From: a virus
Virus record (IMG/VR): IMGVR_UViG_3300042888_002402
DNA: 64,000 bases
Reading direction: 5' to 3' (one strand)
Positions 35,311-64,000 of this stretch are shown in pieces. Below the pieces are notes generated by a model, which saw nothing but the letters and a program-made list of their open reading frames with translations, had not been told where the DNA came from and did no database searches. Each line of letters starts with the position of its first letter. Position 1 is the stretch's first letter. Both the position numbers and the translations under genes were made by a program.

Positions 35311-35619
35311 ATGAATACTGATGAATTAATTGCACACAGTCGAGCCCGTTTTGATCATGCGGTTGCAAGACGGGTACTAAAAGAAAAATACCAAGCCAAA
35401 ATGACGTTTGCTTATGCTGGAGGTCTTTGGCAGGCTGGCCCCGAGCTACTGTGCTTGTTGGCTGCGTGTCCAGATCGTAGCTCTGCTGTAATTTTGGACC
35501 TGTATGAAACGCCAATACAAATCAATGTGGATGAGCTGGAACTTGCGGCAGCACAACGATGGCAGGAACAGATGAACGCATGGTTGGTAGAGTACACAGA
35601 AATTAATAAAAATAGATGA
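35311..35619 (+). CDS. Hypothetical protein
   Basis: 102-aa ORF after the promoter, ATGA-coupled to the next gene; no motif recognised. Confidence 0.7.
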   Translation: MNTDELIAHSRARFDHAVARRVLKEKYQAKMTFAYAGGLWQAGPELLCLLAACPDRSSAVILDLYETPIQINVDELELAAAQRWQEQMNAWLVEYTEINKNR

Positions 35620-36416
35620 CTACCGGAGTATTAATTTTTGCCTACAACAATGAGCATATTGATTATTTGGCCATGGCTGCATGGTCAGCAAAAAATATTC
35701 GTAGACATTTAAAATTACCTGTGTGCGTTGTGACTGATCTGCCAGTGCCGGCTGAATACAACTTTGAACAGGTGGTTTATGCAGCCACTGAGAGTCAAAA
35801 TTCACGTTGGTTTGCTGACATTGATGCCACTGTCACTTGGTACAATGGCAATAGATCCAATGCATACGAGCTGTCACCATGGGATCAAACACTGGTGTTG
35901 GATGCAGACTATGTGGTAGCAAGCAATCAACTGTCACGGTTATTAGCTATAGATCAAGATTTTCTTTGTCATCGTTGGGCCTACGATGTCACCGGGCTAC
36001 AACCATTCGACGACAATAACTTTTTTGGACTGCATCAAATGCCAATGAGTTGGGCAACTGTCATGCTATTTCAACGAAGTAAGACTGCAGAATTAATTTT
36101 TGAATCTATGCAAATGGTTAGAGACAACTGGAATCACTACAGAAATTTATACGGAATTCTAAAACCCACTTATCGCAATGATCATGCACTCAGCATTGCT
36201 TTGAATATTGTTGATGGCCACACATTACGTATTCCGGCCATACCGTGGCAATTGGCCACAGTGACTCCGGACAATCGCCTAACACACATTACACAAGACT
36301 CATACCGTGTGGATTTTACCACCGCAGACAAAAAAACACGTTGGATACAATTAACAAATGATTTTCATGCCATGGGCAAACAACATTTAGGAGCCATAAT
36401 TGCTAATAACACATGA
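35616..36416 (+). CDS. Putative glycosyltransferase, GT-A fold (GT8-like)
   Basis: GVLIFA...DYL.MA...SAKNI, SPWDQTLVLDADY (DxD), WATVMLF, RND.ALSIA, H.MGK. Confidence 0.65.
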   Translation: MTTGVLIFAYNNEHIDYLAMAAWSAKNIRRHLKLPVCVVTDLPVPAEYNFEQVVYAATESQNSRWFADIDATVTWYNGNRSNAYELSPWDQTLVLDADYVVASNQLSRLLAIDQDFLCHRWAYDVTGLQPFDDNNFFGLHQMPMSWATVMLFQRSKTAELIFESMQMVRDNWNHYRNLYGILKPTYRNDHALSIALNIVDGHTLRIPAIPWQLATVTPDNRLTHITQDSYRVDFTTADKKTRWIQLTNDFHAMGKQHLGAIIANNT

Positions 36417-37143
36417 ACGTGGCTATTTGATTCCGGCCGTAAACACTGATTCAGTTGACTATGTGCAATGTGCAGAACAACTGGCAGACAGTATCAGAAC
36501 ATGGCATCCAGATGCAAATATAACAATACTGACCAAAGATCAGTTACCACACGGTGACCTTGGTGGATACGTCAATGATTGTCAGGTATTTCAAGCAAGT
36601 CCGTATCGACAAACAATAAAACTCGAAGCTGACATGATTGCGGCCGGTCCGATAGACCACTGGTGGACATTGTTTGAAAATCGAGATGTTGTGATCAGTC
36701 AAGGTGCTAGAGATTTTTATGATCGTCCTGCCAAGTCAAGACATTATAGAAAAATATTTGACCACAACAATCTTCCAGACGTATACAATGCCATCACATA
36801 CTGGCGGGTAAGTCAAACTGCTAAAGAATTTTTTAATCTAGTGCAGACTATTTTTACAAATTGGGCTATGTATAAAAAACTATTAAAGATGCCCGATGAA
36901 GAAGCCAGTACAGATGTAGTGTATGCCATGGCAGCAATTGTCATGGGGCCAGAGCGAGTGACATTGCCGGTGGGTTTAGGTCCAACTATTGTGCACATGA
37001 AAAAGCACATAAATTCAATTGCCACTAGCAATTGGACTCAAGAATTAGTTTGGGAAAACACTCGTCCAGGCCTTAGAGTAAATACCGTAGCCCAATGGGG
37101 GTTGTTCCATTATCACGTCAAAGATTGGAGAATGAATGAGTAA
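36400..37143 (+). CDS. Putative glycosyltransferase, GT-A fold (GT8-like), paralog of the previous gene
   Basis: GYLIPA...DYVQCA..LADSI, SPYRQTIKLEADM (ExD), YNAITYW, STDVVYA, VHMK, FHYH.K. Confidence 0.62.
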   Translation: MLITHERGYLIPAVNTDSVDYVQCAEQLADSIRTWHPDANITILTKDQLPHGDLGGYVNDCQVFQASPYRQTIKLEADMIAAGPIDHWWTLFENRDVVISQGARDFYDRPAKSRHYRKIFDHNNLPDVYNAITYWRVSQTAKEFFNLVQTIFTNWAMYKKLLKMPDEEASTDVVYAMAAIVMGPERVTLPVGLGPTIVHMKKHINSIATSNWTQELVWENTRPGLRVNTVAQWGLFHYHVKDWRMNE

Positions 37144-37420
37144 AGAACAAGACAAAATTAAACATTCCAAACGACTACAAAAAGATGAAAACGCTATAAA
37201 AAAACAAACAAAGATTGCTAAAGAATTTGGAATACCTGTTGAAGAACCTCACAAGTTTGTCAAACATCACGCAATGAACTGCGGCAATCCAAAATGTGTA
37301 ATGTGCAGTAATCCTCGTAAAACTCTTAAAGAATTAACCCAACAAGAAAAACGGTTGTTTCAAGATGTTGACACCCCTAATGACAAACACAGCAACGGAT
37401 TGAAACCCAAAGATGAATGA
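37136..37420 (+). CDS. Small basic hypothetical protein with a Cys/His cluster
   Basis: KHHAMNCGNPKCVMCSNPRK, possible zinc site; overlaps both neighbours. Confidence 0.65.
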   Translation: MSKEQDKIKHSKRLQKDENAIKKQTKIAKEFGIPVEEPHKFVKHHAMNCGNPKCVMCSNPRKTLKELTQQEKRLFQDVDTPNDKHSNGLKPKDE

Positions 37421-37757
37421 AACTACAGAAAACTTTTGGGCCGCCTGGGCAATACCAGCAACTCCTCCAATCCTTCCATTTTATAGATTGTACCATGATG
37501 AGCAAGGATATCTATTATTTTATAGCATGGAAGATGTTCCAGGTAATTACATAGAGATTGACCAAGAAACATTTGCAGCCAGTTCCCCAAGAGTCAAAGT
37601 CATTGATGGTCAACTGTATCATATAAAAACCAGCAGAGTATTGAAATTAGTGCCCGCAGATCAAGGACAAGCATGTGATCCTAGAGATGTTGCAGTAATA
37701 ACTACAGAATCAAATAAACAATATTGGAAGGTGAAAACCACAGATGAAACAAGTTGA
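37413..37757 (+). CDS. Hypothetical protein
   Basis: 114 aa, FYRLYHDEQG; coupled in the operon. Confidence 0.65.
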   Translation: MNETTENFWAAWAIPATPPILPFYRLYHDEQGYLLFYSMEDVPGNYIEIDQETFAASSPRVKVIDGQLYHIKTSRVLKLVPADQGQACDPRDVAVITTESNKQYWKVKTTDETS

Positions 37758-38676
37758 CATAGCAGATTTAGACTGCATTTATCTTTCATATGACGAACCA
37801 CAACGCGAAGAATTTTGGGTTAAAATTCGCAATATGATTCCGTGGGCCAAACGTGTTGACAGTGTTAAAGGGTCAGACGCAGCTCATAAAGCTGCTGCAG
37901 ATGTCAGTGACACAGAAAGATTTATTTTGATTGATGGCGATAATATGCCAGACGAAAAGTTTTTCAACTTGACATTAGCGTTGCCAGATGAGCAATGGGA
38001 GTCTGCAGTATTTCGCTGGCGAGCACAAAATCACATCAACGGTCTTATGTATGGCAATGGTGGATTAAGTTCCTGGACAAAAACATTTGTTAACAACATG
38101 CAAACTCACGAAGCCACCGACGGCCGAGCTGAAACTGAAGTTGAATTTTGTTTTGATCCACTGTATTGGGCCATGCATGACTGCTATAGCATAACATATC
38201 CCAATGGATCTGCTTATCATGCCTGGAGAGCAGGATTTCGTGAAGGTGTAAAGATGTGTTTGGATCGAGGAAAACGCCCAGACATCACTGAATTCAAAGA
38301 CCGTGTGCATAGTAGAAATTTAGATCATCTAACTATTTGGCACAATGTAGGCCGCGATGTTGAGTACGGTATATGGGCTATTGCTGGTGCTAGAATGGGC
38401 ACATACATGACCATGATTACTCCACAGTGGGACTATAGAACTGTACAAAATTTTGATGAGCTAACAACGTTATGGGACACAGTCAAAGACAGTGATCCAG
38501 AATTATTGGCAGGCAGAGTAGCAGAAGATTTAATCACGCAATTGGATTTGCCTATCAACATGATGTTAGCAAAAGAAAGTGCGTTTTTTAAACATCATTA
38601 CAGATCAAATTGGCACAATCGAGGTGTTATGATTCGAGAAATCGATGTAATTCGTAATCAGGAAGGGCGGAAATGA
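37744..38676 (+). CDS. Putative glycosyltransferase, GT-A-like
   Basis: DCIYLSYDEP, RVDSVKGSDAAHKAAA, FILIDGDN (DxD), NGLMYGNGG, AWRAGFREGVKM; similar to the C-terminal domain of 59125..60729. Confidence 0.55.
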   Translation: MKQVDIADLDCIYLSYDEPQREEFWVKIRNMIPWAKRVDSVKGSDAAHKAAADVSDTERFILIDGDNMPDEKFFNLTLALPDEQWESAVFRWRAQNHINGLMYGNGGLSSWTKTFVNNMQTHEATDGRAETEVEFCFDPLYWAMHDCYSITYPNGSAYHAWRAGFREGVKMCLDRGKRPDITEFKDRVHSRNLDHLTIWHNVGRDVEYGIWAIAGARMGTYMTMITPQWDYRTVQNFDELTTLWDTVKDSDPELLAGRVAEDLITQLDLPINMMLAKESAFFKHHYRSNWHNRGVMIREIDVIRNQEGRK

Positions 38677-39596
38677 AAAAATTATTAATCACAGGCAGTA
38701 GTGGGTTTATTGGACAACACATGTTGTCTAGACTAAAGGACAAATTTGAAATATATTGTTTAAAAAGTGATCTAAGAGATCACAAAACAGTTAACAAAGA
38801 AGTTCAATCATTCAATCCTGATTTAGTAATACATCTAGCAGCCAGAACAGAAGTAGAACAAAGTTTTTATGAACAGGTAGAGTTTTCTGAAATCAATTAT
38901 GTAGGAACCGTTAATTTAATTGAATCTATGCTACAATGTAAAAAGATTCCAAAATTAATTTTTGCTAGCACTATGGAAGTATATGGTTGGCAACCAGTTA
39001 GCGACTTAGTTAAAAATGGCAACATACCGGACAGTATTCCGACGTTTGATCCGGATACAACTATACCCAACCCTAATGCACCTTACGCTGTAGCAAAGTT
39101 TGGTTGCGAAAAATATATTGAATATGCACATCGCAGTTGTGGACTACAATATGTAATAGTTCGACAAACCAACGCTTATGGTCGCCATGACAATAATTTT
39201 TTTGTAACCGAACAAATTATTACACAAATGCTAGATAACTCAGACCAATGTAATTTAGGCTACCAAGAACCCTACAGAAATTTTATTTTTATTACGGATC
39301 TATTAGATGCATGGGAAATTATGATCGACCAATTTGATCAAATATCAAATAATATTTTTACTGTAGGACCCAACAATGCTATTAGTATTGATGCGTATGC
39401 TAAACTTATTGCTAAAAAACTCAACTGGAACGGCACTATTAGCTGGAACACAAAGCCCAAACGCCCTGGTGAAATCTGGGTCTTAAACAGCAGCGAAGAA
39501 AAGTTAACACAGTTCACTGGGTGGAAACCAAAAGTATCGTTAGATGAAGGATTAGACAAAACTATCGAGATATGGAAAAAAATCAAACATTTATAA
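38673..39596 (+). CDS. NAD-dependent nucleotide-sugar epimerase/dehydratase (extended SDR)
   Basis: ITGSSGFIG, HLAA, STMEVYG, YAVAK (YxxxK), NAYG, RPGE. Confidence 0.9.
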   Translation: MKKLLITGSSGFIGQHMLSRLKDKFEIYCLKSDLRDHKTVNKEVQSFNPDLVIHLAARTEVEQSFYEQVEFSEINYVGTVNLIESMLQCKKIPKLIFASTMEVYGWQPVSDLVKNGNIPDSIPTFDPDTTIPNPNAPYAVAKFGCEKYIEYAHRSCGLQYVIVRQTNAYGRHDNNFFVTEQIITQMLDNSDQCNLGYQEPYRNFIFITDLLDAWEIMIDQFDQISNNIFTVGPNNAISIDAYAKLIAKKLNWNGTISWNTKPKRPGEIWVLNSSEEKLTQFTGWKPKVSLDEGLDKTIEIWKKIKHL

Positions 39597-40540
39597 TTCA
39601 CGGAACCAATGATAAACTTTGGAACTTTCAAGAACTAATTGGTTACTTGGTTAAAAATCAACACAAGCATATTTCCTTAGTTATAAATCCAGAAGCCATC
39701 TGTCTTGAAACTCTGGGAATTTATAAATTATTAGAACATTTCAGTTTTGAACAAGTTGATATTTACACAGAAAATTGTTTAGAAAAACATAGCAAGTACA
39801 ATATTATACAATTTGATTTTAGAACATCGTGGCTCAAACAAAAATGGAACGTTGATGCTGAGTATCATTCTTGGAATCAAAAAAAAGTCTTTTTAGCATT
39901 TTATCATAGACCTACCGCCAGCAGACTAGGATTAGCATCTCACTTGTACTGTACTCATCCGGCAGCTTCATTGGTGCATTTTTCTTCTTTTGTTAATAGC
40001 ACAGAGACAATTTATCATTTTGAACTTGATAAACTATTGTCATATGATATACAATCCGTAAAAAATGCAACTAGCATGATACCAGATATGCCAATTTGGT
40101 CCAACGGCAAAGAAGATCTTACTCTTATTAAAAAATTTATAGTTGACGAAAATGTGGACACTATACTTAAAACAATCTATCAAGACATATTAATCGACGT
40201 AGTCAGTGAAAGTCATTCACTTGGAAATACGTTTTATGTAACAGAAAAAACTGTACGACCTATGTGGCTGAAAAAACCATTTATAGTATTTGCTTCTTGT
40301 AATTATCTTTTGTATCTTAAACAGATGGGATTCAGGACCTTTAGTGATTTTTGGTCTGAAGAATATGACGGATACGAAGGACGAGATCGATATGTCAGAA
40401 TTTTGAATTTGATTGATGAAATTGCCAAAAAACCTGCTAGTGAACTAGAACGCATGTATTGGGATATGCAAGATATCCTTGATTGCAATTATAATTTATT
40501 ACACGATCAAACTTACCAAACAAATATTACTGCTATATGA
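39572..40540 (+). CDS. 'TEKT' family hypothetical protein (putative GT10/GT-B-like)
   Basis: DVVSES...FYVTEKTVRPMWLKKPFIVF...GFRTFSDFWSEEYD. Confidence 0.5.
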   Translation: MEKNQTFIIHGTNDKLWNFQELIGYLVKNQHKHISLVINPEAICLETLGIYKLLEHFSFEQVDIYTENCLEKHSKYNIIQFDFRTSWLKQKWNVDAEYHSWNQKKVFLAFYHRPTASRLGLASHLYCTHPAASLVHFSSFVNSTETIYHFELDKLLSYDIQSVKNATSMIPDMPIWSNGKEDLTLIKKFIVDENVDTILKTIYQDILIDVVSESHSLGNTFYVTEKTVRPMWLKKPFIVFASCNYLLYLKQMGFRTFSDFWSEEYDGYEGRDRYVRILNLIDEIAKKPASELERMYWDMQDILDCNYNLLHDQTYQTNITAI

Positions 40541-41949
40541 CAAACAAAGGCAACAAAGTTGTAACAGACTCTAAATCAAAATTTCTAAGTTCTGCAGAAC
40601 AAATGAAAGAAGAGCTAGGACCTGCACTATGCTTGGCCAAATGGAAACAGGTCAGTTTGCATCTCACAACTGGACTTAATAATAGTTGCTACCATCCACC
40701 ATTACATTCAATGGATCCAACAGCAATCGCATCCAATCCATCAGCATTGCATAACACCGAGCACAAAAAAGCACAACGCAAGATCATGCTAAAACAAGAG
40801 CGGCCTACCGAATGCAGTTATTGTTGGAACATGGAAGATAATGACAAACTCAGTGATCGTCATTACAGATCTGGGGAGCCCTGGGCCGCAGTTGACTTTG
40901 AAAAGATCAAACACTCTTCAGGAGACGAAGATGTTGTGCCAAGCTATGTTGAAGTCAATTTTAATCATGCTTGTAATCTGGCATGCAGTTATTGTAGCCC
41001 ACAATTTAGCTCATCGTGGCAGTCCGAAGTTAACAGATTTGGTGGATATCCTACTAGTACTACTCATAATGATCCTAAGCATTTTACAGGGCGCAATCGT
41101 CCTATACCTGTAAAAGAACACAATCCGTATGTAGAAGCGTTCTGGCGTTGGTGGCCTACACTGTATCCAGAACTTAGACATTTCCGTATGACAGGCGGTG
41201 AGCCTCTAATGGACAAAAATACATATCGTGTGTTTGACTATGTGTTGGCAAATCCCAAATCAGATCTGCATTTGAATGTTACCAGTAACTTTTCAGTGGA
41301 GGAAAGTCTATGGCAAAAGTATAAAGAATCAGTTAAACAATTATGCGAAGGCGAAAAAATTGAGCACTTTATGCAGTACGTTAGCCTTGACTCGTGGGCA
41401 GAGCAAGCAGAATATATTCGGCATGGATTAGATTTTGATCTCTTATGGGATCGTGTAAATCAATTTTTAACAGAAATACCAGGGCGCAATAGCATAACAT
41501 TTATTATAACTATGAATAATCTAAGTGTTACAGGCTTTTCTAAACTCATGGCTGGTATTCTTGGCCTAAGAAAAATCTACAGTAAAACATATCAACGAGT
41601 ATGGTTTGATACCCCGTTACTAAGACAACCCACATGGCAGAGTTTGCAATTGTTGCCAGAAAGCTATGCAGATCAACTGGAACATCTGTGGGGATGCATG
41701 CTAGGTCAAATTGAAACTGAAGATGACCCATTTCACGGATTTAAAGACTACGAACTGCAACGATTAGACAGAGATATTGCTTGGATGAGGGATGGGCAGC
41801 AATTAGATACGGCATACTTGCAACGTAACAAAGCAGACTTCTATCGTTTTTTCAGTGAAGCTGATCGCAGACATGGCACAGATTTTTTAACTATATTTCC
41901 TGAAATGTCGTCATGGTGGAAGGAGTGCCAATATTATGCCAAAAATTAA
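40537..41949 (+). CDS. Radical SAM enzyme with N-terminal Twitch/SPASM-like domain
   Basis: N-terminal CLAKW, SCYHP, ECSYCW; core CNLACSYC, TGGEPL, AEYIRHGL. Confidence 0.88.
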   Translation: MTNKGNKVVTDSKSKFLSSAEQMKEELGPALCLAKWKQVSLHLTTGLNNSCYHPPLHSMDPTAIASNPSALHNTEHKKAQRKIMLKQERPTECSYCWNMEDNDKLSDRHYRSGEPWAAVDFEKIKHSSGDEDVVPSYVEVNFNHACNLACSYCSPQFSSSWQSEVNRFGGYPTSTTHNDPKHFTGRNRPIPVKEHNPYVEAFWRWWPTLYPELRHFRMTGGEPLMDKNTYRVFDYVLANPKSDLHLNVTSNFSVEESLWQKYKESVKQLCEGEKIEHFMQYVSLDSWAEQAEYIRHGLDFDLLWDRVNQFLTEIPGRNSITFIITMNNLSVTGFSKLMAGILGLRKIYSKTYQRVWFDTPLLRQPTWQSLQLLPESYADQLEHLWGCMLGQIETEDDPFHGFKDYELQRLDRDIAWMRDGQQLDTAYLQRNKADFYRFFSEADRRHGTDFLTIFPEMSSWWKECQYYAKN

Positions 41950-46897: not shown

Positions 46898-46905
46898 GGG
46901 CATAA

Positions 46906-54543: not shown

Positions 54544-54553
54544 AGGAATTACA

Positions 54554-56839: not shown

Positions 56840-57864
56840 AGGTATGTTTCTAATCCACCGCGTCGACGCAGATCCTGTGTGCAACAACTTATTCCGCCAT
56901 CCCAAAAATAACTGTGTCTTAATTCGCAAATGATAGGTTCAATATGATGGCGATGGCAAAAATCAAAAACATTTTTATTGTACGCACTGAATATGACATG
57001 ACTTTCATCTAGCACCAGACAGTTGACATCAAACACAGTTTCGGCAACAAAGCCAGTCCATTTATTAAGATAAGTGTCTACAAACTGAGTAAATTCAGGT
57101 GTAGGAGTTTGTCCTTGCACATACCAAGCACCCGGATTTGCATCATATTTAAACTTTCCAACTTCCATGGCAGCCCATATACTAGAGTCCCAAATTTTTA
57201 AGACTTCCCAACCCGGAAAGTCTTCAGCCAGATGCAAATGCATATCGTGTTTGCTTGATAATATAACACCAGGTTTAAGAATAGCAAACACAGCATCGCC
57301 ATGTCCGTCGGTTACAGCTTCGTGAATGCGATAGCCTTCACCCAGCATGTTGTCCACAATCCAACGAGTCTGATCAGGCCGCAAGAAATCTGAGTTGTCA
57401 AAGAACACATCGCGCCCCACACGCACAATACAACTGGCACTGGCACCATTTAGGATACAGTCTTTGTCCCAACGACTCTTGTGTGGATTAACAACTTGAT
57501 CGCCAAATTCAGCACAGATGTTATCTAGTTCTTCTACGTTGATCACACGCAACAGTTTATCACCCAGGGTGATTTGCCAATCTCGTGGCGTCAGTGGCGG
57601 CAGCGGAACACCTCCTCCTCCTTCAGTTTGACGCCAAACAAATGCGTCTTTCCAGGGCAAGCTGGGGCGATGTACTTGAGCCCCATACTTCTCAATGGTT
57701 TTTTGCAGGCCGTCGAGATCCTCTTCAGTTTCGTGGAGAATCTGTTGCAGTTGATTACGCACTTGCGGATTGTCAATAAAATCAAAGTAATCGGGTGGGT
57801 AGGCGCGACCTACAATGACCTCTTCAAGAGGTTGCCAGCTGGTGTAGGAGTTAATTTTGTTCAT
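56836..57864 (-). CDS. Amidinotransferase family protein (glycine/inosamine-phosphate amidinotransferase-like)
   Basis: NSYTSWQPLEEVIVG, VHRP, PRD, RVGRD, GHGDA.F..LKPG, FDVNCL, FWDGGISCCTQDL.R (C-terminal catalytic Cys region). Confidence 0.85.
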   Translation of the reverse strand: MNKINSYTSWQPLEEVIVGRAYPPDYFDFIDNPQVRNQLQQILHETEEDLDGLQKTIEKYGAQVHRPSLPWKDAFVWRQTEGGGGVPLPPLTPRDWQITLGDKLLRVINVEELDNICAEFGDQVVNPHKSRWDKDCILNGASASCIVRVGRDVFFDNSDFLRPDQTRWIVDNMLGEGYRIHEAVTDGHGDAVFAILKPGVILSSKHDMHLHLAEDFPGWEVLKIWDSSIWAAMEVGKFKYDANPGAWYVQGQTPTPEFTQFVDTYLNKWTGFVAETVFDVNCLVLDESHVIFSAYNKNVFDFCHRHHIEPIICELRHSYFWDGGISCCTQDLRRRGGLETYL

Positions 57865-58048
57865 GTAAGTTCCGTAGTAAAGTATTTAATCTGTCCAGTT
57901 TTGTGGATTGATATAACTGCCAGGTGTGCAGTATGTCATCACAGCAGCGCAGAAACACGCCGTGTGGATCTTGTTGTATTTGTTGTAATGTGTGTTTTAT
58001 TTTGTCGTTAAGAATACGATCAGCTACAAAATTAAACTGTAAACTCAT
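57851..58048 (-). CDS. 65-aa bridging ORF, possibly an internally deleted gene
   Basis: Overlaps both neighbours; no recognisable domain. Confidence 0.4.
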   Translation of the reverse strand: MSLQFNFVADRILNDKIKHTLQQIQQDPHGVFLRCCDDILHTWQLYQSTKLDRLNTLLRNLHEQN

Positions 58049-59123
58049 TAAACATCTCCATTAACTCTTTCCATAATATGTTTTCAAATCCTGTGCCATA
58101 AAAATGTTCAAAGTTATGTTCCACTATTGGCACACAAGCACGATGTATTTGTTGTCGTTCTTTAATAGATAGACTGTTTAAATCTTTAAGTAATTGTGTA
58201 ACTTTTTCAATTCTCTTAATATCGTTGGTTTCTTCATCATAGCTTTCGTCAAAAATTCCTTGAAAAGTTTGAAACCCGTAACTTCTCATATAGCGTAAAC
58301 TATGTGCAGGTGCTACTAACACAAACGGCATTTCTAGTGCAATAGCCTTGAATGTTTTTTCTGTTATATGCAATCGTTGACCAAAATACACTGTTTCTGT
58401 TGGTACATACACCAAACTATCTGCTGCCTCATCAAAGTTAGTCAACCAACAACTGGTCATTTGTTGGGTTTCTTCCCCCGGAAATAGTTTAGGTAAGTCT
58501 GCTGTCCGAAACATTTGCTCTATGTCAGGATATATGTTATTATACTTTTTAGCTACTACTGAAATATCTATATTTTCGTATACACATGTGCGTGGCGCAG
58601 ATATCCAGTTGTTTTCTAAATTATATTTGAATACATTATACAAAAACAACACACGATGATCACGTTTTCCGGCAATAATGCGATTGGGACTTATAAAAGT
58701 TTTTGTTGGTGCACGATCACGAGCACGTGGTATTAGGAATGTTTTATCATACCCCCTGAACCAATCTTTACAAGCCCACCCATGATAAAAATAATAATGA
58801 CTACTCCATCCATAAGTTGCACACAGTTTCTCGACAAATTCACCTTGTTCACTGACAATTATGTGTCCAATTGGTTCTGGAGTTATATCACGATTTCGAA
58901 TCAAAACTTTTTGAAATAAAGAGTTGTGTAAATCTAAATGCACAGGTTCTTGATCATGCAAAAATACATAGTCATTTTCTACAATGCTAACAACCCCAAG
59001 ATTAAATAGACTGTCTGGATTGGCACTACCAGGAGGGTCACAAAAAAATAATCTAGTACCAGGCTTATTTTTCTTTAGCCAAGGCCAAATTGTATTGTTG
59101 TAAATTTCATCTATTCTAATCAT
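58032..59123 (-). CDS. 'TEKT' family hypothetical protein (putative GT10/GT-B-like)
   Basis: HDQEP, NR....R.HR, YVPTET...HITEKTFKAIALEMPFVLVA...GFQTF...DESYD. Confidence 0.55.
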   Translation of the reverse strand: MIRIDEIYNNTIWPWLKKNKPGTRLFFCDPPGSANPDSLFNLGVVSIVENDYVFLHDQEPVHLDLHNSLFQKVLIRNRDITPEPIGHIIVSEQGEFVEKLCATYGWSSHYYFYHGWACKDWFRGYDKTFLIPRARDRAPTKTFISPNRIIAGKRDHRVLFLYNVFKYNLENNWISAPRTCVYENIDISVVAKKYNNIYPDIEQMFRTADLPKLFPGEETQQMTSCWLTNFDEAADSLVYVPTETVYFGQRLHITEKTFKAIALEMPFVLVAPAHSLRYMRSYGFQTFQGIFDESYDEETNDIKRIEKVTQLLKDLNSLSIKERQQIHRACVPIVEHNFEHFYGTGFENILWKELMEMFNEFTV

Positions 59124-59124
59124 T

Positions 59125-60729
59125 ATGTTTGACGTATTTTATTCCGGAATCAAGCCCAATTTATTTCCTCATGAGCAGTCAGCCACTGATATCGAGCATG
59201 CAATAACTCTGAGTGGTACAAGATATTTTTGGTGGATAAATTACTTATCGGACTACTCAGGCTTTGATTTTCTTTGGGAGCCAGTATCATGGGAAAAAGA
59301 TCAAACACATGTATGGCCCAGTCAACATCAAGAAAATGGCGGTACTTATCTTGTGCCTAAACAACACAGCAGTGAAGTCAACAGAAAACATAATAAAATA
59401 CCTCGTGTAAAAAGTGTACCTATCATAGGAATTGACCACGGCAATGGATTAAACTGTACTGTTGATAGATCTAGTAGATTTATAAATGACTATCTAGGAA
59501 CTCTTAAGCGTGTGTTGTCAACAGTGAAAGATGAGTATGTTTGGATAGTTAGCAGTGTATGTGATTATTCTGATTTTGATTTTACCTGGCATCCCAGTGA
59601 ATGGCAGGCCGCAATGTTGCATGTATTTCACAGCAACGAACAAAAATTTGGAGACACGTTTTACATACATGTGCCTAGCTTTCTTAAAGGAACTGAGAAT
59701 TTAGTGTTGTTAGAATGGTTCAATACCATTCACTTTGTAGAAGATATTCAAGTTCCACGCCGCCCTGTACCTGTGGTACAACACACGCATGACACTCATG
59801 TACAAGCAGTTTGGGAATATGACTTTCAAGATCCAGTGGTGGAATTTACTGTTGATAATTATCGTGGGGGTGTTCCTACAGTTAATCTTTGGCGGCAGTC
59901 TGTGCGTGATGTAACACCGTTGACTCCAGGAGCATCTCGAGTGCTGGTGCCAAGAGATGCTAAAAATCATTTAAAAACACAATTGTACGATTATCCAGTC
60001 ATAAACAAAACACATCGAACTGTTGGAAAAGACAATCCGTTAGATATTGTGTTTATCAGCAACGGTGAGCCCATGGCTGAAGATAACTGGCTTCATCTCT
60101 TTGACACATGCAGCCAACTCAACAGAATTACTCGTATAAATGGTGTCAACGGCCGTGTGGCAGCTTATCATGCAGCAGCCGCAGCCAGTAACACACCTTG
60201 GTTTTTTGCAGTGTTTGCTAAACTACAGGTAGAATCTATCTTTGACTGGTCCTGGCAACCAGATAGATTACAAGAACCCAAGCACTATATTTTTTATGCA
60301 GCCAATCCTGTGAATGGCCTGGTGTACGGACATCAAGCAATGATTGCTTATAATAAAAAACTAGTGTTAAACAACTCTGGTGTCGGATTGGACTTCACGC
60401 TAGACTCAGCACATGAAGTTGTGCCTGTTATGTCTGGCACTGCTTATTATTGTGAAAGTGCATGGGTGTGTTGGAGAACTGCATTTCGTGAAGCACTTAA
60501 ACTTCGACACAGTTTGCCCAACGTAGAAAATGAATATAGACTTAAATGTTGGTTAAAAGAAGACTCTGGTACTATTGCCAATGGACATTGGAGCCATAAA
60601 GGTGCACAAGATGCAGTGGAGTTTTATGAATTAGTAAACGGGGATTTTGCCGAGCTCAAAAAAAGCTATGACTGGGCTTGGCTGGCCAGCTATGCGTTTG
60701 TTAAACGGAATCTAACAACTGATCAATGA
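59125..60729 (+). CDS. Multi-domain putative glycosyltransferase-like protein with internal repeats
   Basis: Two FDF.W.P..W....HV(W/F).S....G.T repeats, then a domain similar to 37744..38676 (DIVFISNGEP, GVNGRVAAYHAAA, NGLVYGH, WRTAFRE..K) but with no DxD. Confidence 0.55.
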   Translation: MFDVFYSGIKPNLFPHEQSATDIEHAITLSGTRYFWWINYLSDYSGFDFLWEPVSWEKDQTHVWPSQHQENGGTYLVPKQHSSEVNRKHNKIPRVKSVPIIGIDHGNGLNCTVDRSSRFINDYLGTLKRVLSTVKDEYVWIVSSVCDYSDFDFTWHPSEWQAAMLHVFHSNEQKFGDTFYIHVPSFLKGTENLVLLEWFNTIHFVEDIQVPRRPVPVVQHTHDTHVQAVWEYDFQDPVVEFTVDNYRGGVPTVNLWRQSVRDVTPLTPGASRVLVPRDAKNHLKTQLYDYPVINKTHRTVGKDNPLDIVFISNGEPMAEDNWLHLFDTCSQLNRITRINGVNGRVAAYHAAAAASNTPWFFAVFAKLQVESIFDWSWQPDRLQEPKHYIFYAANPVNGLVYGHQAMIAYNKKLVLNNSGVGLDFTLDSAHEVVPVMSGTAYYCESAWVCWRTAFREALKLRHSLPNVENEYRLKCWLKEDSGTIANGHWSHKGAQDAVEFYELVNGDFAELKKSYDWAWLASYAFVKRNLTTDQ

Positions 60730-61813
60730 TGTATTCTATTTCTAAATCTGTAAGCTCAGGATACAGTGGAAGAGAAAGCACACGCCGACTGAGCATGGTT
60801 GCTACACTTGTCATATCGGGCCCAACAAACTGTTGATACGCAGGCAGTTCGTGCAATGGGTTACGATAGTGTATTTTAGTTTCTATATTTTTTAAGGCAA
60901 TTTTACGTTGCACTATATCTGCGTTGTCTACTTCTATAACAAACTTGTGAAAGCAATGTCCTGAGCGAGTTTGATCATTGACTAAACATCTAATATGATT
61001 GTGATCTTTTAGTCGATCGCACCAATGATCGACTATCTTTTCTCGTTGATGTTGCCACTGGTCAATGTACTTTGTTTTAACCAGCATGGTAGCACAGTCT
61101 ATTTCACTCATGCGGCTATTAGTTCCTGTTTCAACATTTCCGGGTTTACCATTGTCTCTCCAAGCCCGAGCAAATTCTGCCAGTTTGAGATCTGGAGTAA
61201 GCACTGCACCGCCATTGCCATAGTTAGACAAATTTTTCATTGGATCAAAACTAATGGCCATAGCATTGGCAATTGACATTTTTCTTGTAGATAGCCAATG
61301 TTGAGCACCATCTTCCAACAACAGTCCTGTGGATACTTTATTGGTCAATGTATAATGAGGAATTGCACCGTATAGTCCTACTAGTACTGTGGCATCATAC
61401 ACCTTGTTTTTGGAGATGTTTGAATAGTTAGCTAACCCATTACGGTCAACGTCTGAGAATTCTATATTCCAACCAGCCCGTAGAAAAGCATTGGCAGTGG
61501 CCTGATAGGTAAGAGTAGGTAACAGTACTGTAGCCGAGTTATTACTAGACAAGTAATTTTTGATGCAATACTCGGCTATGATTTCCAAAGCCTGAGTGCC
61601 ACTGTGACAAGTTATAGCATACTTGGTATTATTTTTTTTTGCCAACCAAGATTCAAATTCAACCGTGTAGTTGCCATTCATCAACTGTCCAGACCTCAGA
61701 ACAGTATCTATAGCATTGAGGATTTCAGATCTGAGATTGTTGTATTGCTTTTGGAGCCCAGTAAAGGGAATTTTTAATCCAGGTGTAGTAATTTTCAAAT
61801 CCTTCTTTGACAT
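60701..61813 (-). CDS. DegT/DnrJ/EryC1/StrS family PLP-dependent sugar aminotransferase
   Basis: SGTQAL, TYQATANA, VGLYG, EDGAQ, SFDPMKNL (PLP lysine), GNGGAV, NSRMSEI, IHY..PLH, LSLPLYP. Confidence 0.92.
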   Translation of the reverse strand: MSKKDLKITTPGLKIPFTGLQKQYNNLRSEILNAIDTVLRSGQLMNGNYTVEFESWLAKKNNTKYAITCHSGTQALEIIAEYCIKNYLSSNNSATVLLPTLTYQATANAFLRAGWNIEFSDVDRNGLANYSNISKNKVYDATVLVGLYGAIPHYTLTNKVSTGLLLEDGAQHWLSTRKMSIANAMAISFDPMKNLSNYGNGGAVLTPDLKLAEFARAWRDNGKPGNVETGTNSRMSEIDCATMLVKTKYIDQWQHQREKIVDHWCDRLKDHNHIRCLVNDQTRSGHCFHKFVIEVDNADIVQRKIALKNIETKIHYRNPLHELPAYQQFVGPDMTSVATMLSRRVLSLPLYPELTDLEIEYIIDQLLDSV

Positions 61814-62705
61814 CTACTTTGGGGTCAAATCCAAAGTCATTGCGTGCCGCATCAATATTTAATGCACCACGACTTGGAAAATCTGCATCCTTGTCTCTTA
61901 GTTCAATGGTGCCAGACCCTACAATATCAACAATCATTTTGGCAGCTTGGCTCAAACTAACACTATGACTCTTGGTAATATTATATATTTTATTATCAGT
62001 ATTATTACTCACGGCTGCTTCAACAATGCCTGCGGCTGCATCATCTACGTAGGTAAAGTCCAAGGTTTCGTTGGAGCCGTTTACATAAAGAGTTTCTCCG
62101 CGCATAGCTCTGAGCATAAATTTTGCAACCACTCGGTCTTCAACGTCAAGTGGTCCGTATACAGCGCTAGGGCGAATAATAGTATAATTAAAACTGCCAC
62201 GACGGGCGTAATCTTTGACAAGGTGTTCTCCTGATAGTTTCATAATTCCATATTGACCAATTGGATTGCATACAGCGTTTTCTGTTACATCATCCAAGAA
62301 GTCCCCGTAGACCATTGAGCTAGAAATGTACAATACTTTACGCACATGGTGTTTTCGAGCACTTTCAAGTATGTTAATAAGTCCTTCCATCATGACTCGG
62401 CTGCCCCATGCAGGATCAGCATTGACAACTTTTTGTCGCGGAAAACTGGCCATGTGTATAACAATTTCCGGTCTGTGTTTACCTATTACGTAATCCACAG
62501 TTTCTGCAGATTCAATGGATGCACTGTAAATCGGGCTATTAACTTTTTTTAGCCTTTCGCCCATAAGATAATCTAACTCATCTTGCGGAACAAGCCCGTA
62601 GTTTGTTTTATTGTCAATTATTGATACTGAATGATCTAATTTTTCTAGTAGATTTACTACATTATGACCAATAAGACCACACCCACCTGTCACTAATATA
62701 TTCAT
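61725..62705 (-). CDS. NAD-dependent nucleotide-sugar epimerase/dehydratase (extended SDR)
   Basis: From ATG 62705: ILVTGGCGLIG, SSSMVYG, YGIMK (YxxxK), RPSAVYGP, DFTYVDD. Confidence 0.9.
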   Translation of the reverse strand: MNILVTGGCGLIGHNVVNLLEKLDHSVSIIDNKTNYGLVPQDELDYLMGERLKKVNSPIYSASIESAETVDYVIGKHRPEIVIHMASFPRQKVVNADPAWGSRVMMEGLINILESARKHHVRKVLYISSSMVYGDFLDDVTENAVCNPIGQYGIMKLSGEHLVKDYARRGSFNYTIIRPSAVYGPLDVEDRVVAKFMLRAMRGETLYVNGSNETLDFTYVDDAAAGIVEAAVSNNTDNKIYNITKSHSVSLSQAAKMIVDIVGSGTIELRDKDADFPSRGALNIDAARNDFGFDPKVDVKEGFENYYTWIKNSLYWAPKAIQQSQI

Positions 62706-63697
62706 TTGGTTATTTCTCCGTATAGGTAATTGCTCCACCATTCATGCCCTTGTTCCAATGGATGCTTGGTAGCATGCGGACTATTAAATGGGGAATTTGT
62801 CAACCAGTTAACCGCTTCGAGTGATTGTTCTATTAGCTCGAGCAACTGTAGTTTACTATTTTGAATTTGTAGATGCTTGATAAATTTAGTAACTGGATCT
62901 ATAGCTATGCCACTCATTAAGTATAATGGATCTGGATATTTAGTTAAATTTCCGTGATCTGCAATAACGTCAACCCAGCGTTGAGTAACATAATTACCAG
63001 ACTGTAACTGTTTGTTATTGTTAAAAAAACTAGTAAAATTCCTACCTACATAACAGTTTAAATTTAGTTTACTAAATTTGTTGAGAACAGAATTTAGTGC
63101 AGTGACGGAGTATTGTTCAACCAGTTCTAGTAGTTCCAACACACTGGTGGCAAATTTTATTTTTAAATACAATTGTAATATATGAGTAAATTCTAAATTT
63201 TCCGTAGATAATTCATTTATTGCAAAAGACATGTCAGACTCATTATATGTGCCATTGACAATGTCATTGAACCTTGGCCAGGTGTCGCCGGCTAATACAT
63301 CAGTGTATAAAGATTCATAATCTAAAAAAGTGTTAGTTAATTCTCTGCCAGACTCAGTCAGCGTAACTACCAAATAAATTTGTTTGTATGTTTTAGTTAA
63401 CTCAGAAAGAACTTTATGCAGATGATTAATTACCGATATATTATCAAGTCCTGGTAGCCCAATATTAATAAAATCAGCTGAAAGTTTTTTTGCTAGTAGA
63501 TGCCCATAAATGTGATTGGTTCTGTGTTCAACGTTGTCATAATATCTATTGGTACCGCCAAGGCTATCGCCCCATGTCCAACTATCACCTGCAGTTATCA
63601 ATAATATATCTTTATTGTAATCTTTTTCAAAATACCAGTGACGATCCGGTTCATGCGGTAACATAAGTGAGTCAATGGATAATTGAGTTAACTGCAT
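62702..63697 (-). CDS. SGNH hydrolase-like protein
   Basis: TAGDSWTWGD, NIGLPGLDN, TESGR, C-terminal KHP...GH. Confidence 0.55.
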   Translation of the reverse strand: MQLTQLSIDSLMLPHEPDRHWYFEKDYNKDILLITAGDSWTWGDSLGGTNRYYDNVEHRTNHIYGHLLAKKLSADFINIGLPGLDNISVINHLHKVLSELTKTYKQIYLVVTLTESGRELTNTFLDYESLYTDVLAGDTWPRFNDIVNGTYNESDMSFAINELSTENLEFTHILQLYLKIKFATSVLELLELVEQYSVTALNSVLNKFSKLNLNCYVGRNFTSFFNNNKQLQSGNYVTQRWVDVIADHGNLTKYPDPLYLMSGIAIDPVTKFIKHLQIQNSKLQLLELIEQSLEAVNWLTNSPFNSPHATKHPLEQGHEWWSNYLYGEITK

Positions 63698-63999
63698 TTA
63701 TTGCCCCATCGTAATTGCCAATATACCTGATCAGACTCTGTTAATCTTGCAAATATATAATATTTAAATCCATAGTTGTAAAGATCTGGTCGTCTGACCC
63801 AGTAAGGTTTATCTTCTGCATGCGCCATGACCCAGGCTCCTGCTTCACTTTCTTGCCACTCTATCAATGGTTGTCCAGCATATAAATCTGGATCCTCTAC
63901 ATCGCCCATTGTAAATGAATGTACCTGGACATCACTAAATTTTACAGGTTTGTCGTTGACAATCTTTGTGTATGGTTCTTGAAATAGTTCAGACCATTT
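63688..63999 (-). CDS. Hypothetical protein, 3' part (start lies beyond the window)
   Basis: Frame stays open upstream of ATG 63909 to the edge: KWSELFQEPYTKIVNDKPVKFSDVQVHSFTMGDVEDPDLYAGQPL. Confidence 0.65.
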   Translation of the reverse strand, partial: KWSELFQEPYTKIVNDKPVKFSDVQVHSFTMGDVEDPDLYAGQPLIEWQESEAGAWVMAHAEDKPYWVRRPDLYNYGFKYYIFARLTESDQVYWQLRWGNKCS

Positions 64000-64000
64000 T

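Follow-up and report, generated by a model that had tools for sequence, protein, structure and literature searches.

The window analysed here, a 64,000-nucleotide stretch of viral DNA, carries between positions 35311 and 64000 a block of 30 ORFs and an overlooked 33-aa ORF (54554–54655). Upstream of the block lie a gp6-like baseplate wedge gene, a giant ORF of 4773 aa, a fibre-like ORF and an ORF with 23% Thr. An earlier note on this DNA had described a 29-kb block of about 30 mostly overlapping genes after the tail module; the block is present there, behind tail and fibre genes, and the gene number and overlap given for it are correct, with the 33-aa ORF missed. The block may continue past the end of the window, where g30 is partial. 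Gene order was compared in 80 viral loci fetched out of 207 matches, and the locus counts below refer to these. The features are:

34253–35236, plus strand: 327-aa fibre-like ORF, the last one ahead of the block, 23% Thr, S+T+N+G = 51%; candidate acceptor, outside the enzyme set
35259–35304, plus strand: promoter-like region, GC hairpin (35259–35279), then TTTACT-N17-TATAAT, TG-extended
35311–35619, plus strand: g1, 102-aa core protein (56/80 loci, median 64% identity; homologue in the phage RsoM2USA 27% identical)
35616–37143, plus strand: g2 and g3, two core paralogues, Rossmann-like at the N-terminus, putative GT-A-like transferases
37136–37420, plus strand: g4, 94-aa Lys-rich insert, present in only one relative
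37413–37757, plus strand: g5, 114-aa conserved core protein
37744–38676, plus strand: g6, best-conserved core protein outside the radical SAMs, with DGDN, NGLxYG and WRxxFRE motifs; putative GT2-like transferase
38673–40540, plus strand: g7 and g8, NDP-sugar SDR and 'TEKT' GT-B paralogue; variable insert
40537–41949, plus strand: g9, N-terminal-twitch radical SAM, core (NF033640, 295 bits; 80/80 loci; RsoM2USA 33% identical)
41998–46007, plus strand: g10–g13, variable GDP-6-deoxy-sugar cassette, GC 0.35–0.37
46011–47553, plus strand: g14, SGNH-like by motif only, and g15, without assigned family; variable
47546–48874, plus strand: g16, N-terminal-twitch radical SAM, core (NF033640, 298 bits; 80/80 loci)
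48856–49746, plus strand: g17, TctC/Bug-like solute-binding protein with signal peptide; variable
49743–53489, plus strand: g18, g19 and g20, core, N-terminal-twitch radical SAM paralogues in tandem (NF033640, 400, 333 and 291 bits)
53455–54543, plus strand: g21, core protein (70/80 loci)
54554–54655, plus strand: basic 33-aa microprotein that has a separate ribosome-binding site and overlaps g22 at ATGA
54652–56151, plus strand: g22, NodU/CmcH/TobZ-type carbamoyltransferase, core (68/80 loci)
56135–56839, minus strand: g23, SGNH-like, weak DUF6071 match; variable
56836–57864, minus strand: g24, amidinotransferase-family enzyme by family profile against PDB sequences, core
58032–59123, minus strand: g25, core 'TEKT' GT-B glycosyltransferase, predicted from an AF2 model (pLDDT 85.6)
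59125–60729, plus strand: g26, core, two N-terminal repeats and a g6-like C-terminal domain without the DGD motif
60701–62741, minus strand: g27 and g28, DegT/PseC-like aminotransferase and NDP-sugar SDR; closest relatives only
62702–63999, minus strand: g29, GDS motif, SGNH-like by motif only, and g30, partial

The end of the TATAAT box lies 6 nt from the ATG of g1, with no Shine-Dalgarno sequence between them. The same hairpin and a TGTAYAAT box 5–9 nt upstream of the ATG are present in ~45 relatives, and RsoM2USA has a similar arrangement. To judge by its sequence, 35259–35304 looks like the block's own promoter. The position of the hairpin and the conserved promoter-like box between the fibre genes and the block argues that the block is a separate transcription unit, and with a box of the sigma-70 type early expression would fit better than late expression. 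A second sigma-70-like site is found at 46803–46831, in the gap between g14 and g15.

The syntenic core consists of g1–g3, g5, g6, the five radical SAM genes, g21, the 33-aa peptide, g22 and g24–g26. It was found in no fewer than 207 IMG/VR contigs, including several genomes of ~345 kb, and its gene order is repeated in 80/80 fetched viral loci, an arrangement that exceeds chance. The core enzymes do co-occur in relatives, one of the points on which the earlier note had staked its reading. Contigs of marine and freshwater origin that were binned into MAGs have the core as well, and the marker protein g6 is present in only 1/50,697 deposited phage records. The variable slots across relatives hold 80 gene clusters, and the recognisable ones are mostly sugar-tailoring genes (SDRs, UDP-glucose dehydrogenase, DegT, PfkB kinase, hexapeptide acyltransferases and methyltransferases), together with extra radical SAMs. 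Some accessory genes of relatives encode AMP-binding enzymes and a tryptophan-halogenase-like protein, which look more like small-molecule chemistry. The accessory part of the window has a lower GC content and different Lys/Arg usage, and the textbook sugar-nucleotide genes (g7, g10–g12 and in part g27/g28) lie mostly within it. Instead of the single 29-kb pathway proposed earlier, the block is, by the relatives' loci and GC, a mosaic of a conserved core and variable inserts, and the earlier observation of the gene block is partly confirmed overall. A reduced form, g1-g2-g3-x-g6-rSAM-g6', is present in the cultured Ralstonia phage RsoM2USA, where the tail sheath gene (ORF359) and the virion protein gene ORF356 precede it, with an SDR gene between these two (PMC8504454). 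A search of the 12 kb flanking the radical SAM gene on each side gave no match there to g22 or g24.

Five Twitch radical SAM enzymes had been claimed, and g9, g16, g18, g19 and g20 all exceed the cut-off of 170 bits for NF033640 (N_Twi_rSAM, 'twitch domain-containing radical SAM protein'), with scores of 291–400 bits, full-length matches and an auxiliary-cluster Cys motif N-terminal to CX3CX2C. All five keep four invariant N-terminal cysteines together with CX3CX2C. The three tandem paralogues occur in 80/80 loci at 72–82% identity; in these the Pfam SPASM match is at the N-terminus, ahead of Radical_SAM, and the invariant residues are C31, C50, C92, C95, C139-X3-C-X2-C and GGEP. We know of no NF033640 member with an assigned reaction, and none was found in the literature searched; the family is a catalogue entry, and therefore membership says nothing on substrate. 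The enzymes resemble BtrN, HygY, NeoN and AprD4 in combining a radical SAM core with a single auxiliary Fe-S domain and in occurring alongside DegT-type aminotransferases in sugar tailoring, but the twitch domain is C-terminal in those four and N-terminal here, and an NCBIfam search gave no sequence-level match to any of them. The best NCBIfam matches outside the family were MoaA, viperin and peptide maturases, at 15–30 bits.

The product of g22 contains both Carbam_trans domains (Carbam_trans_N, E 1.6e-32; Carbam_trans_C, E 4.3e-48), in agreement with the NodU/TobZ carbamoyltransferase named in the earlier note, and its NodU match (E 2.7e-40) is far under the NodU equivalog cut-off. The microprotein ahead of it has an almost invariant C-terminal YRKKLKELRKRDPFIY stretch and presumably resembles the small SxtK-type partners of carbamoyltransferase-type enzymes. 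The proposed amidinotransferase, g24, is an AGAT/StrB1 homologue by its family profile (AGAT, E 1e-18; StrB1, 5e-14; HsvA, 7e-14; SxtG, 6e-13); the single sequence gave no Pfam or NCBIfam match. The profile match extends over three segments and most of the protein and includes the nucleophilic Cys in GG-x-x-C-x-T, although identity to the AGAT family is low and the g24 lineage is phage-specific. In our numbering, the AGAT nucleophile Cys aligns with Cys327 of g24 and the triad His with His188, while the aligned triad-Asp position is a near-invariant Ser and the Asp was not mapped. A homologue is annotated in Synechococcus phage S-SCSM2R. In the T4-like Campylobacter phages CP220 and CPt10, five radical SAMs and a putative glycine amidinotransferase form a module described as interchangeable and non-essential, with no function assigned (Timms et al. 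2010, PMC2853527). This is the same unusual pairing as in the block, but the paper mentions no glycosyltransferases or carbamoyltransferase (PMC2853527). CP220/CPt10 were not retrieved by tblastn with g18 and g24, so the two modules are either distant homologues or just analogues.

Among the transferases, g25 is the clearest. Its predicted fold points to a GT-B glycosyltransferase: the top Foldseek matches were all GT-B, and by VIA-align, where WaaG and WaaB also came up, the closest solved folds were the two T4 DNA glucosyltransferases (beta-GT, Z 10.6; alpha-GT, Z 10.3), just ~1 above fucosyltransferases (alpha-1,3-fucosyltransferase, Z 9.2) and protein O-glycosyltransferases. Of the three 'TEKT' GT-like proteins listed earlier, g25 is thus GT-B by a confident fold model and g8 and g13 are its paralogues by sequence. 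Viral 'TEKT' relatives are fused to UDP-glucose dehydrogenase or methyltransferase.

The four proteins previously called GT-A-like (g2, g3, g6 and g26) are a more qualified case. DXD-type motifs (LDADYVV/LEADMI in g2/g3), an ESM-Atlas neighbour cluster of g6 auto-named 'Glycosyltransferase 2-like' and bacterial g6 relatives (actinomycetes, Bacteriovoracaceae) that adjoin GT4 or GT2 genes speak for the assignment. Against it, g2/g3 and g6/g26 gave no Pfam, NCBIfam or PDB-sequence match and the g6 fold model was poor, and g2, g3 and g6 are unproven as GT-A-like enzymes. A profile-profile comparison of the g2/g3 family with the g6/g26 family gave no similarity. g6 is present in 76/80 loci at a median identity of 74% (44% for the RsoM2USA copy) and has homologues in at least 8000 metagenomic protein clusters. 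The core protein g21 has no Pfam, NCBIfam, PHROG, PDB or Atlas match and belongs with ~7800 metagenomic clusters, all unnamed.

The sugar-nucleotide genes named in the earlier note were recovered by HMM: the four NDP-sugar SDRs are extended SDRs (g7, 38673; g10, 41998; g12, 44002; g28, 61725, minus strand), the sugar kinase is a GHMP kinase (g11) and the DegT aminotransferase is g27. In the g10–g13 cassette, g10 is a 4,6-dehydratase closest to GMD, g11 an HddA-like GHMP kinase, g12 an Fcl-like GDP-fucose synthase (440 bits) and g13 a 'TEKT' GT-B whose true start is probably 44949. The first three are translationally coupled to the fucosyltransferase-like GT-B, and their best NCBIfam matches (Gmd, HddA, Fcl) recall the GDP-6-deoxy-heptose and GDP-L-fucose cassettes of Campylobacter, Yersinia and Burkholderia surface glycans, all below equivalog cut-offs (g10, 156 vs 415; g11, 145 vs 600; g12, 440 vs 500). 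Unlike HddA/DmhA/Gmd/Fcl-type cassettes, the block has no GmhA, GmhB or HddC partners, and the genes are a variable insert, absent or represented by distant matches only in relatives. g27/g28 recur only in the closest relatives, at 51–71% identity in two of them. The SGNH-like assignment of three proteins is putative, with GxS...DxxH motifs and, for g23, a sub-threshold DUF6071 match in its favour; PDB-sequence searches with g23 and g29 gave no match.

The enzyme classes support the phage-encoded sugar-tailoring and -transfer pathway proposed earlier, and the block very probably yields an unusual decorated sugar chain. That it carries out sugar chemistry at all we consider likely; that it forms a cytoplasmic tailoring and glycosyl-transfer system in two layers, the acceptor left open, we judge slightly better than an even chance. 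Points against this two-layer reading are the separate transcription unit with its promoter-like box, the T4 DNA glucosyltransferases as nearest folds to g25, the small-molecule look of some accessory genes of relatives, the unproven GT-A status of g2, g3 and g6, and the Ser at the aligned triad-Asp position of g24. No block enzyme has a TM segment, and all block proteins are soluble except g17, the only non-cytoplasmic one. In five relatives (95–100% complete) there was no NTP_transferase, Bac_transf or Glycos_transf_4. The absence from these relatives of sugar nucleotidyltransferases, priming transferases, ThyA-type hydroxymethylases and TGT/DpdA, together with the soluble enzymes, suggests that host NDP-sugars are used and that the action is cytoplasmic. 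The first layer would be the conserved core, spread over hundreds of related jumbo-phage contigs: the putative transferases g2, g3, g6 and g26, the GT-B g25, the five N-terminal-twitch radical SAMs, the AGAT/StrB1-family amidinotransferase, the NodU/TobZ-type carbamoyltransferase with its coupled 33-aa microprotein, and g1, g5 and g21. The second, the variable inserts, would supply special donors in this phage: the 4,6-dehydratase, HddA-like kinase and Fcl-like reductase may make a GDP-6-deoxy-hexose or GDP-6-deoxy-heptose for their own GT-B, and the SDR and DegT genes a 4-amino-4,6-dideoxy-type sugar. Host NDP-sugars would be converted to deoxy- and amino-sugars, and a short glycan built on a cytoplasmic acceptor by the soluble transferases. 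An amine would become a guanidino group through the amidinotransferase, with arginine as donor, a hydroxyl or amine would be carbamoylated, and the five radical SAMs may carry out C-H abstraction (epimerisation, oxidation or deoxygenation) at different positions. An aminoglycoside pathway was also considered and rejected: no cyclitol or 2-deoxy-scyllo-inosose-type scaffold enzyme, sugar nucleotidyltransferase or exporter was found, and of the aminoglycoside-type claim the likeness in enzyme class stands. No characterised pathway of such composition was found in the literature searched, as had been stated, and the earlier interpretation is partly supported overall.

The three targets suggested earlier (virion proteins, host surface and DNA) are not equally likely. 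Our best guess, a tentative one held at somewhat less than even chance, is that the glycan is put on virion proteins made by the phage, most of all on the Thr/Ser-rich fibre proteins encoded just upstream. Chloroviruses and mycobacteriophages encode glycosylation of their virion proteins. Virus-encoded glycosylation, such as that of DNA by the T4 alpha- and beta-glucosyltransferases, to which the g25 fold is closest, likewise has soluble transferases act in the cytoplasm on a macromolecule made by the virus, with NDP-sugars from the host, but with one to few transferases and no known radical SAM, amidino or carbamoyl chemistry. It is unlikely that the enzymes instead act at the inner membrane face on host lipid-linked LPS, O-antigen or capsule intermediates, altering the infected-cell surface so that superinfection is excluded or progeny do not re-adsorb to debris. 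LPS and capsule loci typically contain genes for GDP-6-deoxy-hexose/heptose and amino-dideoxy-sugars, soluble GT-Bs are common among LPS-core transferases, WaaG and WaaB are among the fold matches of g25, cyanomyophages are reported to carry LPS-type gene clusters, and the signal-peptide protein g17, a D-Ala-D-Ala carboxypeptidase in a variable slot of relatives and possible early expression from the sigma-70-like promoter would all fit. A self-contained route of this kind is unsupported, however, because the five complete relatives lack a priming phosphoglycosyl transferase, the block genes showed no flippase, polymerase, ligase or exporter, and the enzymes are soluble, without membrane segments. 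The core is also kept in phages of presumably very different hosts (marine, freshwater, Ralstonia) and thus of different surface glycans.

Least probable of all is that the sugars are placed on a modified base of the phage DNA, with amidino, carbamoyl and radical steps decorating it further and host nucleases blocked. The CP220/CPt10 group has since been reported to carry non-canonical guanine replacements, and the variable transferase content among close relatives recalls the T-even phages. The T4 enzymes as best structural matches of g25, a promoter that fits early genes and the five radical SAMs with a putative glycine amidinotransferase first noted in CP220/CPt10 (PMC2853527) point the same way. 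The T-even kind of DNA glycosylation is nevertheless unsupported because the five 95–100% complete relatives have no ThyA-family hydroxymethylase and no TGT/DpdA; the small lead of the T4 Z scores, related gene sets in bacterial chromosomes and the location of the block in the structural-gene region also weigh against DNA. A Tet/JBP search gave no match, and its control was uninformative. Only a little less improbable is a different kind of product, either a free glycosylated, guanidinylated and carbamoylated metabolite or a RiPP-like matured form of the 33-aa peptide that acts inside the infected cell. Twitch/SPASM radical SAMs often act on peptides, the core encodes a peptide with an almost invariant C-terminus, AMP-binding and halogenase-like genes occupy variable slots, and Bdellovibrio-like bacteria have radical-SAM-rich islands with g6 relatives. 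But the block holds no scaffold synthase, protease, leader-recognition domain or exporter, translational coupling links the peptide to the carbamoyltransferase and to nothing else, and at least seven transferase-like genes are hard to square with a six-residue core. Moreover, RsoM2USA keeps the g1–g6/radical SAM part, with g22 and g24 unmatched within 12 kb of the radical SAM gene and the peptide outside that search. As for the preferred acceptors, the virion proteins, fibre or tail genes adjoin the block both here and in the distant RsoM2USA.

The block of sugar-modifying genes behind the tail and fibre genes (window 35311–64000) holds 30 ORFs, g1–g30, the majority of which are coupled by start/stop overlaps, as the earlier note had read it. 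For three genes the longest-ORF start probably lies too far 5′: start 44949 instead of 44850 restores ATGA-type coupling for g13, start 56839 does the same for g23 (56836–56929), and start 53455 instead of 53443 agrees with the stored Atlas record for g21. Co-occurrence and synteny in relatives, by which that note proposed to check its claim of a sugar pathway, extend to one gene order across 80/80 loci examined: g1-g2-g3-g5-g6-[slot]-g9-[slot]-g16-g18-g19-g20-g21-(peptide)-g22-[slot]-g24-[slot]-g25-g26. Relatives seldom or never have g4, g7, g8, g10–g15, g17, g23 and g29 at these positions, and g27, g28 and g30 recur in the closest relatives only. The block is a conserved core with swappable inserts. 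Four further features are referred to below.

Features of the window
17816–32137, + strand: giant ORF of 4773 aa after the gp6-like wedge gene, matching FG-GAP repeats and CBM5/12
35259–35311, + strand: GC hairpin after the last fibre gene, then a promoter-like box, TTTACT-N17-TATAAT (TG-extended), ahead of g1
48856–49746, + strand: g17, a periplasmic solute-binding protein of the TctC/Bug family that carries a signal peptide, amid the cytoplasmic radical SAM genes
54554–54655, + strand: basic microprotein of 33 aa that has a ribosome-binding site of its own and overlaps the g22 gene by ATGA, missing from the gene list of the earlier note

Relatives of the radical SAM gene g18 number at least 207 in IMG/VR (75–89% identity), and five of the contigs that carry them are 342–353 kb long and 95–100% complete. 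Across relatives the slots are filled by 80 different gene clusters. Those that can be recognised include additional radical SAMs, SDRs, UDP-glucose dehydrogenase, DegT, PfkB kinase, hexapeptide acyltransferases, methyltransferases and GDSL/DUF6071 proteins, in addition to two AMP-binding enzymes and one halogenase-like gene. The GC content of the insert-rich 38–48 kb is 0.35–0.38 as compared to 0.41–0.44 for the core radical SAM genes (48000–52000), and the accessory genes have a higher Lys/Arg ratio than core genes, which together point to genes acquired recently from another source.

More distant versions of the core are found on marine and freshwater contigs binned into MAGs, and the MAG-filed contigs with the cassette have the appearance of jumbo-phage sequence that was binned with bacterial genomes. 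The entire phage cassette is present at 50–83% identity in L083, L084, L133 and L134 (NZ_JBBAKG010000001.1, NZ_JBBAKG010000003.1, ‘Haliscomenobacter sp.’ MAG); L090 and L099 are likewise MAG-filed carriers, and such contigs span 148–350 kb. Bdellovibrio-like chromosomes have radical-SAM-rich islands with g6 relatives, and in Streptomyces, Nocardia, Micromonospora and Salinispora g6 occurs alone, coupled to a GT4 gene. In three such loci (L119, L122 and L124, from Streptomyces and Nocardia, near 8830–10700) the g6 homologue is translationally coupled to the GT4-type glycosyltransferase gene, and in Streptomyces L119 the pair adjoins a gene for an HTH regulator. Near the actinomycete g6-GT4 pairs there was no match to a radical SAM gene. 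Among 50,697 deposited phage records g6 was found in Ralstonia phage RsoM2USA only, and the core had no match at the DNA level. RsoM2USA carries g1-g2-g3-x-g6-rSAM-g6′ shortly behind ORF359 and ORF356, with an SDR gene between these two; by mass spectrometry ORF359 is the tail sheath and ORF356 a 21.1-kDa virion protein (PMC8504454). The g6 and g21 families each comprise thousands of metagenomic protein clusters, none of them named and none with a Pfam domain; an ESM Atlas search with g21 itself returned no match.

At the centre of the core are the five radical SAM proteins (g9, g16, g18, g19 and g20) that the earlier note had called Twitch enzymes. All five exceed the curated cut-off (170 bits) of NF033640 (N_Twi_rSAM, ‘twitch domain-containing radical SAM protein’), with full-length HMM scores of 295, 298, 400, 333 and 291 bits, respectively. 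The paralogues share invariant C31, C50, C92 and C95, followed by C139, C143, C146 and GGEP. The Pfam SPASM match at residues 9–96 is N-terminal to Radical_SAM, and the auxiliary-cluster domain is placed N-terminally because the four invariant cysteines precede CX3CX2C in all five proteins. By these scores and motifs, all five are true NF033640 members. We know of no member of NF033640 with an assigned reaction.

Single-sequence HMMs are blind to g24, the amidinotransferase of the earlier note; a family profile built from 23 orthologues matches the AGAT/StrB1 family. Against PDB sequences this profile gave AGAT at 1.1e-18, StrB1 at 5.1e-14, HsvA at 7e-14 and SxtG at 6e-13, over three matched segments. 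The invariant Cys327 of g24 aligns to the nucleophilic Cys of AGAT GGFHCWT and His188 to the triad His of AGAT NPHIDATF. The triad Asp of AGAT, whose residues were counted by hand, falls just beyond the aligned segment, and by this count g24 has a near-invariant Ser at the position. As judged by this profile, g24 is a divergent amidinotransferase homologue. The proposed NodU/TobZ carbamoyltransferase, g22, is recovered by both Pfam domains over their cut-offs: Carbam_trans_N (ASKHA/Kae1-like) at 113.7 bits (cut-off 24) and Carbam_trans_C (YrdC-like) at 163.5 bits (cut-off 27). It has the HHHSH metal motif and scores 138.7 bits against the NodU equivalog NF041651, below the 1000-bit cut-off. 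On its domain content and this score, g22 is a member of the NodU/CmcH/TobZ family and not a NodU orthologue. The microprotein encoded next to it was found in 53/68 relatives, and its last 17 residues are almost invariant among them, while the carbamoyltransferase itself is only ∼67% identical. We take it to be reminiscent of the SxtK-type ‘PFIY’ partners of carbamoyltransferases. The peptide had no usable match in Pfam (E up to 10) or NCBIfam (E up to 1), the literature searched held no papers on DUF5989, and complex prediction with g22 scored 0.00 in two runs, which speaks neither for nor against binding.

The three ‘TEKT’ proteins (g8, g13 and g25), previously described as glycosyltransferase-like, are all paralogous, and a confident model (pLDDT 85.6) assigns the GT-B fold to g25. 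All 50 top Foldseek matches of this model are GT-B-fold proteins, and VIA-align against GT-B enzymes gives Z 10.6–7.2 over residues 1–363, the full length with two Rossmann-like domains. The best matches are the T4 beta-glucosyltransferase (Z 10.6) and alpha-glucosyltransferase (Z 10.3), and the model also aligns with alpha-1,3-fucosyltransferases (5zoi, Z 9.2; FUT11, Z 8.3; FUT9, Z 7.6) and with the protein O-glucosyltransferase POGLUT (Z 9.1). A TEK motif is present in g25, Pfam Glyco_transf_10 does not match it, and in the model its GT10-like features are not separable from those of other GT-B families. On its predicted structure, g25 is a GT-B glycosyltransferase. Fusions with UDP-glucose dehydrogenase or with a methyltransferase occur among its viral relatives.

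The remaining candidates are less firmly placed. No match to Pfam, NCBIfam or PDB sequences was found for g2, g3, g6 or g26, and family profiles of g6, g2/g3, g25 and g21 gave nothing significant against PDB sequences. DXD-like motifs occur in g2, g3 and g6, and none in g26; the Atlas neighbour cluster of g6 carries the name GT2-like. The AF2 model of g6, from a shallow alignment of 24 sequences, is poor (pLDDT 47.5). Profile-profile comparison found no relation between the g6 and g2/g3 families. From motifs, cluster name and gene neighbourhood, g2/g3 and g6/g26 are putative, unverified GT-A-like proteins. Similarly, g14, g23 and g29 are putative SGNH-like proteins, an unverified assignment based on GxS and DxxH motifs seen by eye and on their sole family match, that of g23 to DUF6071 (23.9 bits, under the cut-off of 27); g23 and g29 had no match when searched singly against PDB sequences. 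The unannotated ORFs gave nothing usable in Pfam (E up to 10) or NCBIfam (E up to 1).

Genes for sugar-nucleotide conversion are as the earlier note had listed them. By Pfam and NCBIfam there are four extended SDRs, one HddA-like GHMP kinase as the sugar kinase (g11), and one DegT/PseC-like aminotransferase (g27). Among the SDRs, g10 has GDP-mannose 4,6-dehydratase as its closest family and g12 is Fcl-like (440 bits). None of the block enzymes has a membrane segment, and a signal peptide is found in g17 only. In the five near-complete relatives, with positive controls matched, we found no sugar nucleotidyltransferase, no priming phosphoglycosyl transferase (PF02397, PF00953) and no TGT/DpdA. 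Given soluble enzymes and these missing families, the block must depend on NDP-sugars of the host and operate in the cytoplasm. The block itself has no priming transferase, flippase/transporter or polymerase, and is therefore not a self-contained surface-polysaccharide pathway.

The block is a real, conserved phage sugar-tailoring system of the virus-encoded glycosylation kind. The variable cassettes would convert host NDP-sugars into 6-deoxy and 4-amino-dideoxy donors, and soluble transferases would build up a short sugar chain on an acceptor in the cytoplasm. The amidinotransferase may then add a guanidino group and the carbamoyltransferase a carbamoyl group, and each of the five radical SAM paralogues may edit a different C-H position. 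Our favoured acceptor, with a likelihood somewhat short of even, is virion fibre proteins, because the module adjoins tail/fibre genes in two very distant phages, because the neighbouring proteins are Thr/Ser-rich and because a core with hypervariable inserts resembles exposed-glycan loci. Remodelling of the host envelope by way of host lipid-linked intermediates is unlikely, and a free metabolite or matured peptide as the product slightly more so. Hypermodification of DNA appears the least probable: the fold of g25 matches T4 AGT and BGT, but an acceptor-base pathway is lacking. The ThyA-family hydroxymethylase (PF00303) is absent from the five relatives that are 95–100% complete (control matched in 10/14 genomes), and a Tet/JBP search of relatives matched nothing, yet is uninformative as its control matched nowhere either. 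T-even-style DNA glycosylation by the block is unsupported by the gene content of these relatives.

For the virion, a more specific reading is that the core (g1–g6, the five N-twitch radical SAMs, g21, the microprotein with the carbamoyltransferase, the amidinotransferase, g25 and g26) is an unrecognised phage radical-SAM glycan-editing system. It would place a guanidinylated/carbamoylated sugar coat on virion fibre proteins, new radical chemistry by NF033640 enzymes would act on the protein-linked sugars, and exchangeable donor cassettes would make the coat differ between close relatives, much as O-antigen loci do for bacterial surfaces. Taken as a whole this reading is rather unlikely.

The comparison with aminoglycoside pathways in the earlier note was by enzyme class. 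No cyclitol scaffold enzyme (2-deoxy-scyllo-inosose or myo-inositol-phosphate synthase type) was found among the 30 ORFs with Pfam, NCBIfam or PHROGs, and the block has no resistance gene, exporter or other membrane protein. The resemblance is therefore at the level of enzyme class only, and we dropped the reading of the block as specifying an aminoglycoside antibiotic. Five radical SAMs and a putative amidinotransferase, the pairing seen in the block, were reported and left unexplained in Campylobacter phages CP220 and CPt10 (Timms et al., PMC2853527). A 2025 cyanophage study (PMC12801897) detected a g24 relative, annotated as glycine amidinotransferase, in virion preparations, and termed a separate trio of DegT-like, radical SAM and inosamine-amidinotransferase genes ‘antibiotic synthesis genes’. 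The literature searched, including jumbo phage with radical SAM and glycosyltransferase, held no paper characterising the cassette.

To our knowledge, virus-encoded glycosylation is known from a few simple systems only. The block is much larger than these, is abundant in nature, with at least 207 IMG/VR contigs bearing the core, and is built around a radical SAM family without a known reaction; there is a fair chance that it conceals new chemistry. Should the product decorate virions, it would matter for the host range, stability and recognition of phages in lakes and oceans, and would provide new enzymes for the guanidinylation, carbamoylation and radical editing of sugars. If it marks DNA or the host surface instead, it would represent new anti-defence or exclusion chemistry. 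Since RsoM2USA has a culturable host and a minimal module, the question is open to direct testing there, on ORF348–354 and ORF358.

Genes in the left half of the window are those for SbcCD-like nucleases, a late sigma factor resembling gp55, virion proteins, a baseplate hub, gp25 and a gp6-like wedge, together with three fibre-like ORFs and the 4773-aa ORF, which is presumably a giant fibre or a protein attached to the baseplate. The wedge protein shares ∼34% identity with its counterparts in the 121Q/PBECO4/Rak2-type and Phosso jumbo myophages, which makes the window a distant uncultured member of that assemblage. The virion proteins at 5200–35236 are all charge-poor (K 1–3%, D+E 3–9%) and rich in S, T, N, G and A, and Thr makes up 23% of the final ORF ahead of the block. 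A lysine-specific depletion tied to amidination/carbamoylation was considered and dropped: all charged residues are scarce, and lysine is not singled out.

The hairpin and the conserved promoter-like box between the fibre genes and g1 suggest that the block is its own transcription unit with a dedicated promoter. The TATAAT box ends 6 nt 5′ of the g1 ATG, with no Shine-Dalgarno sequence, so that a leaderless g1 mRNA is possible. Both the hairpin and a TGTAYAAT box are kept in ∼45 relatives (among L001–L078), the box ending 5–9 nt before the g1 start codon, and RsoM2USA has a similar layout (L082, 8140–8196). In the window the TGTAYAAT box occurs before g1 only. No copy of the T4 late-promoter box TATAAATA occurs in the window. 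TAAATA boxes lie near several structural-gene starts and 18 nt 5′ of g24 and are too weak for assigning early or late timing.

Relatives of g17 occur in ∼10 related loci at ∼40% identity. The TctC/Bug family is expanded in Betaproteobacteria, and this affiliation may hint at a betaproteobacterial host.
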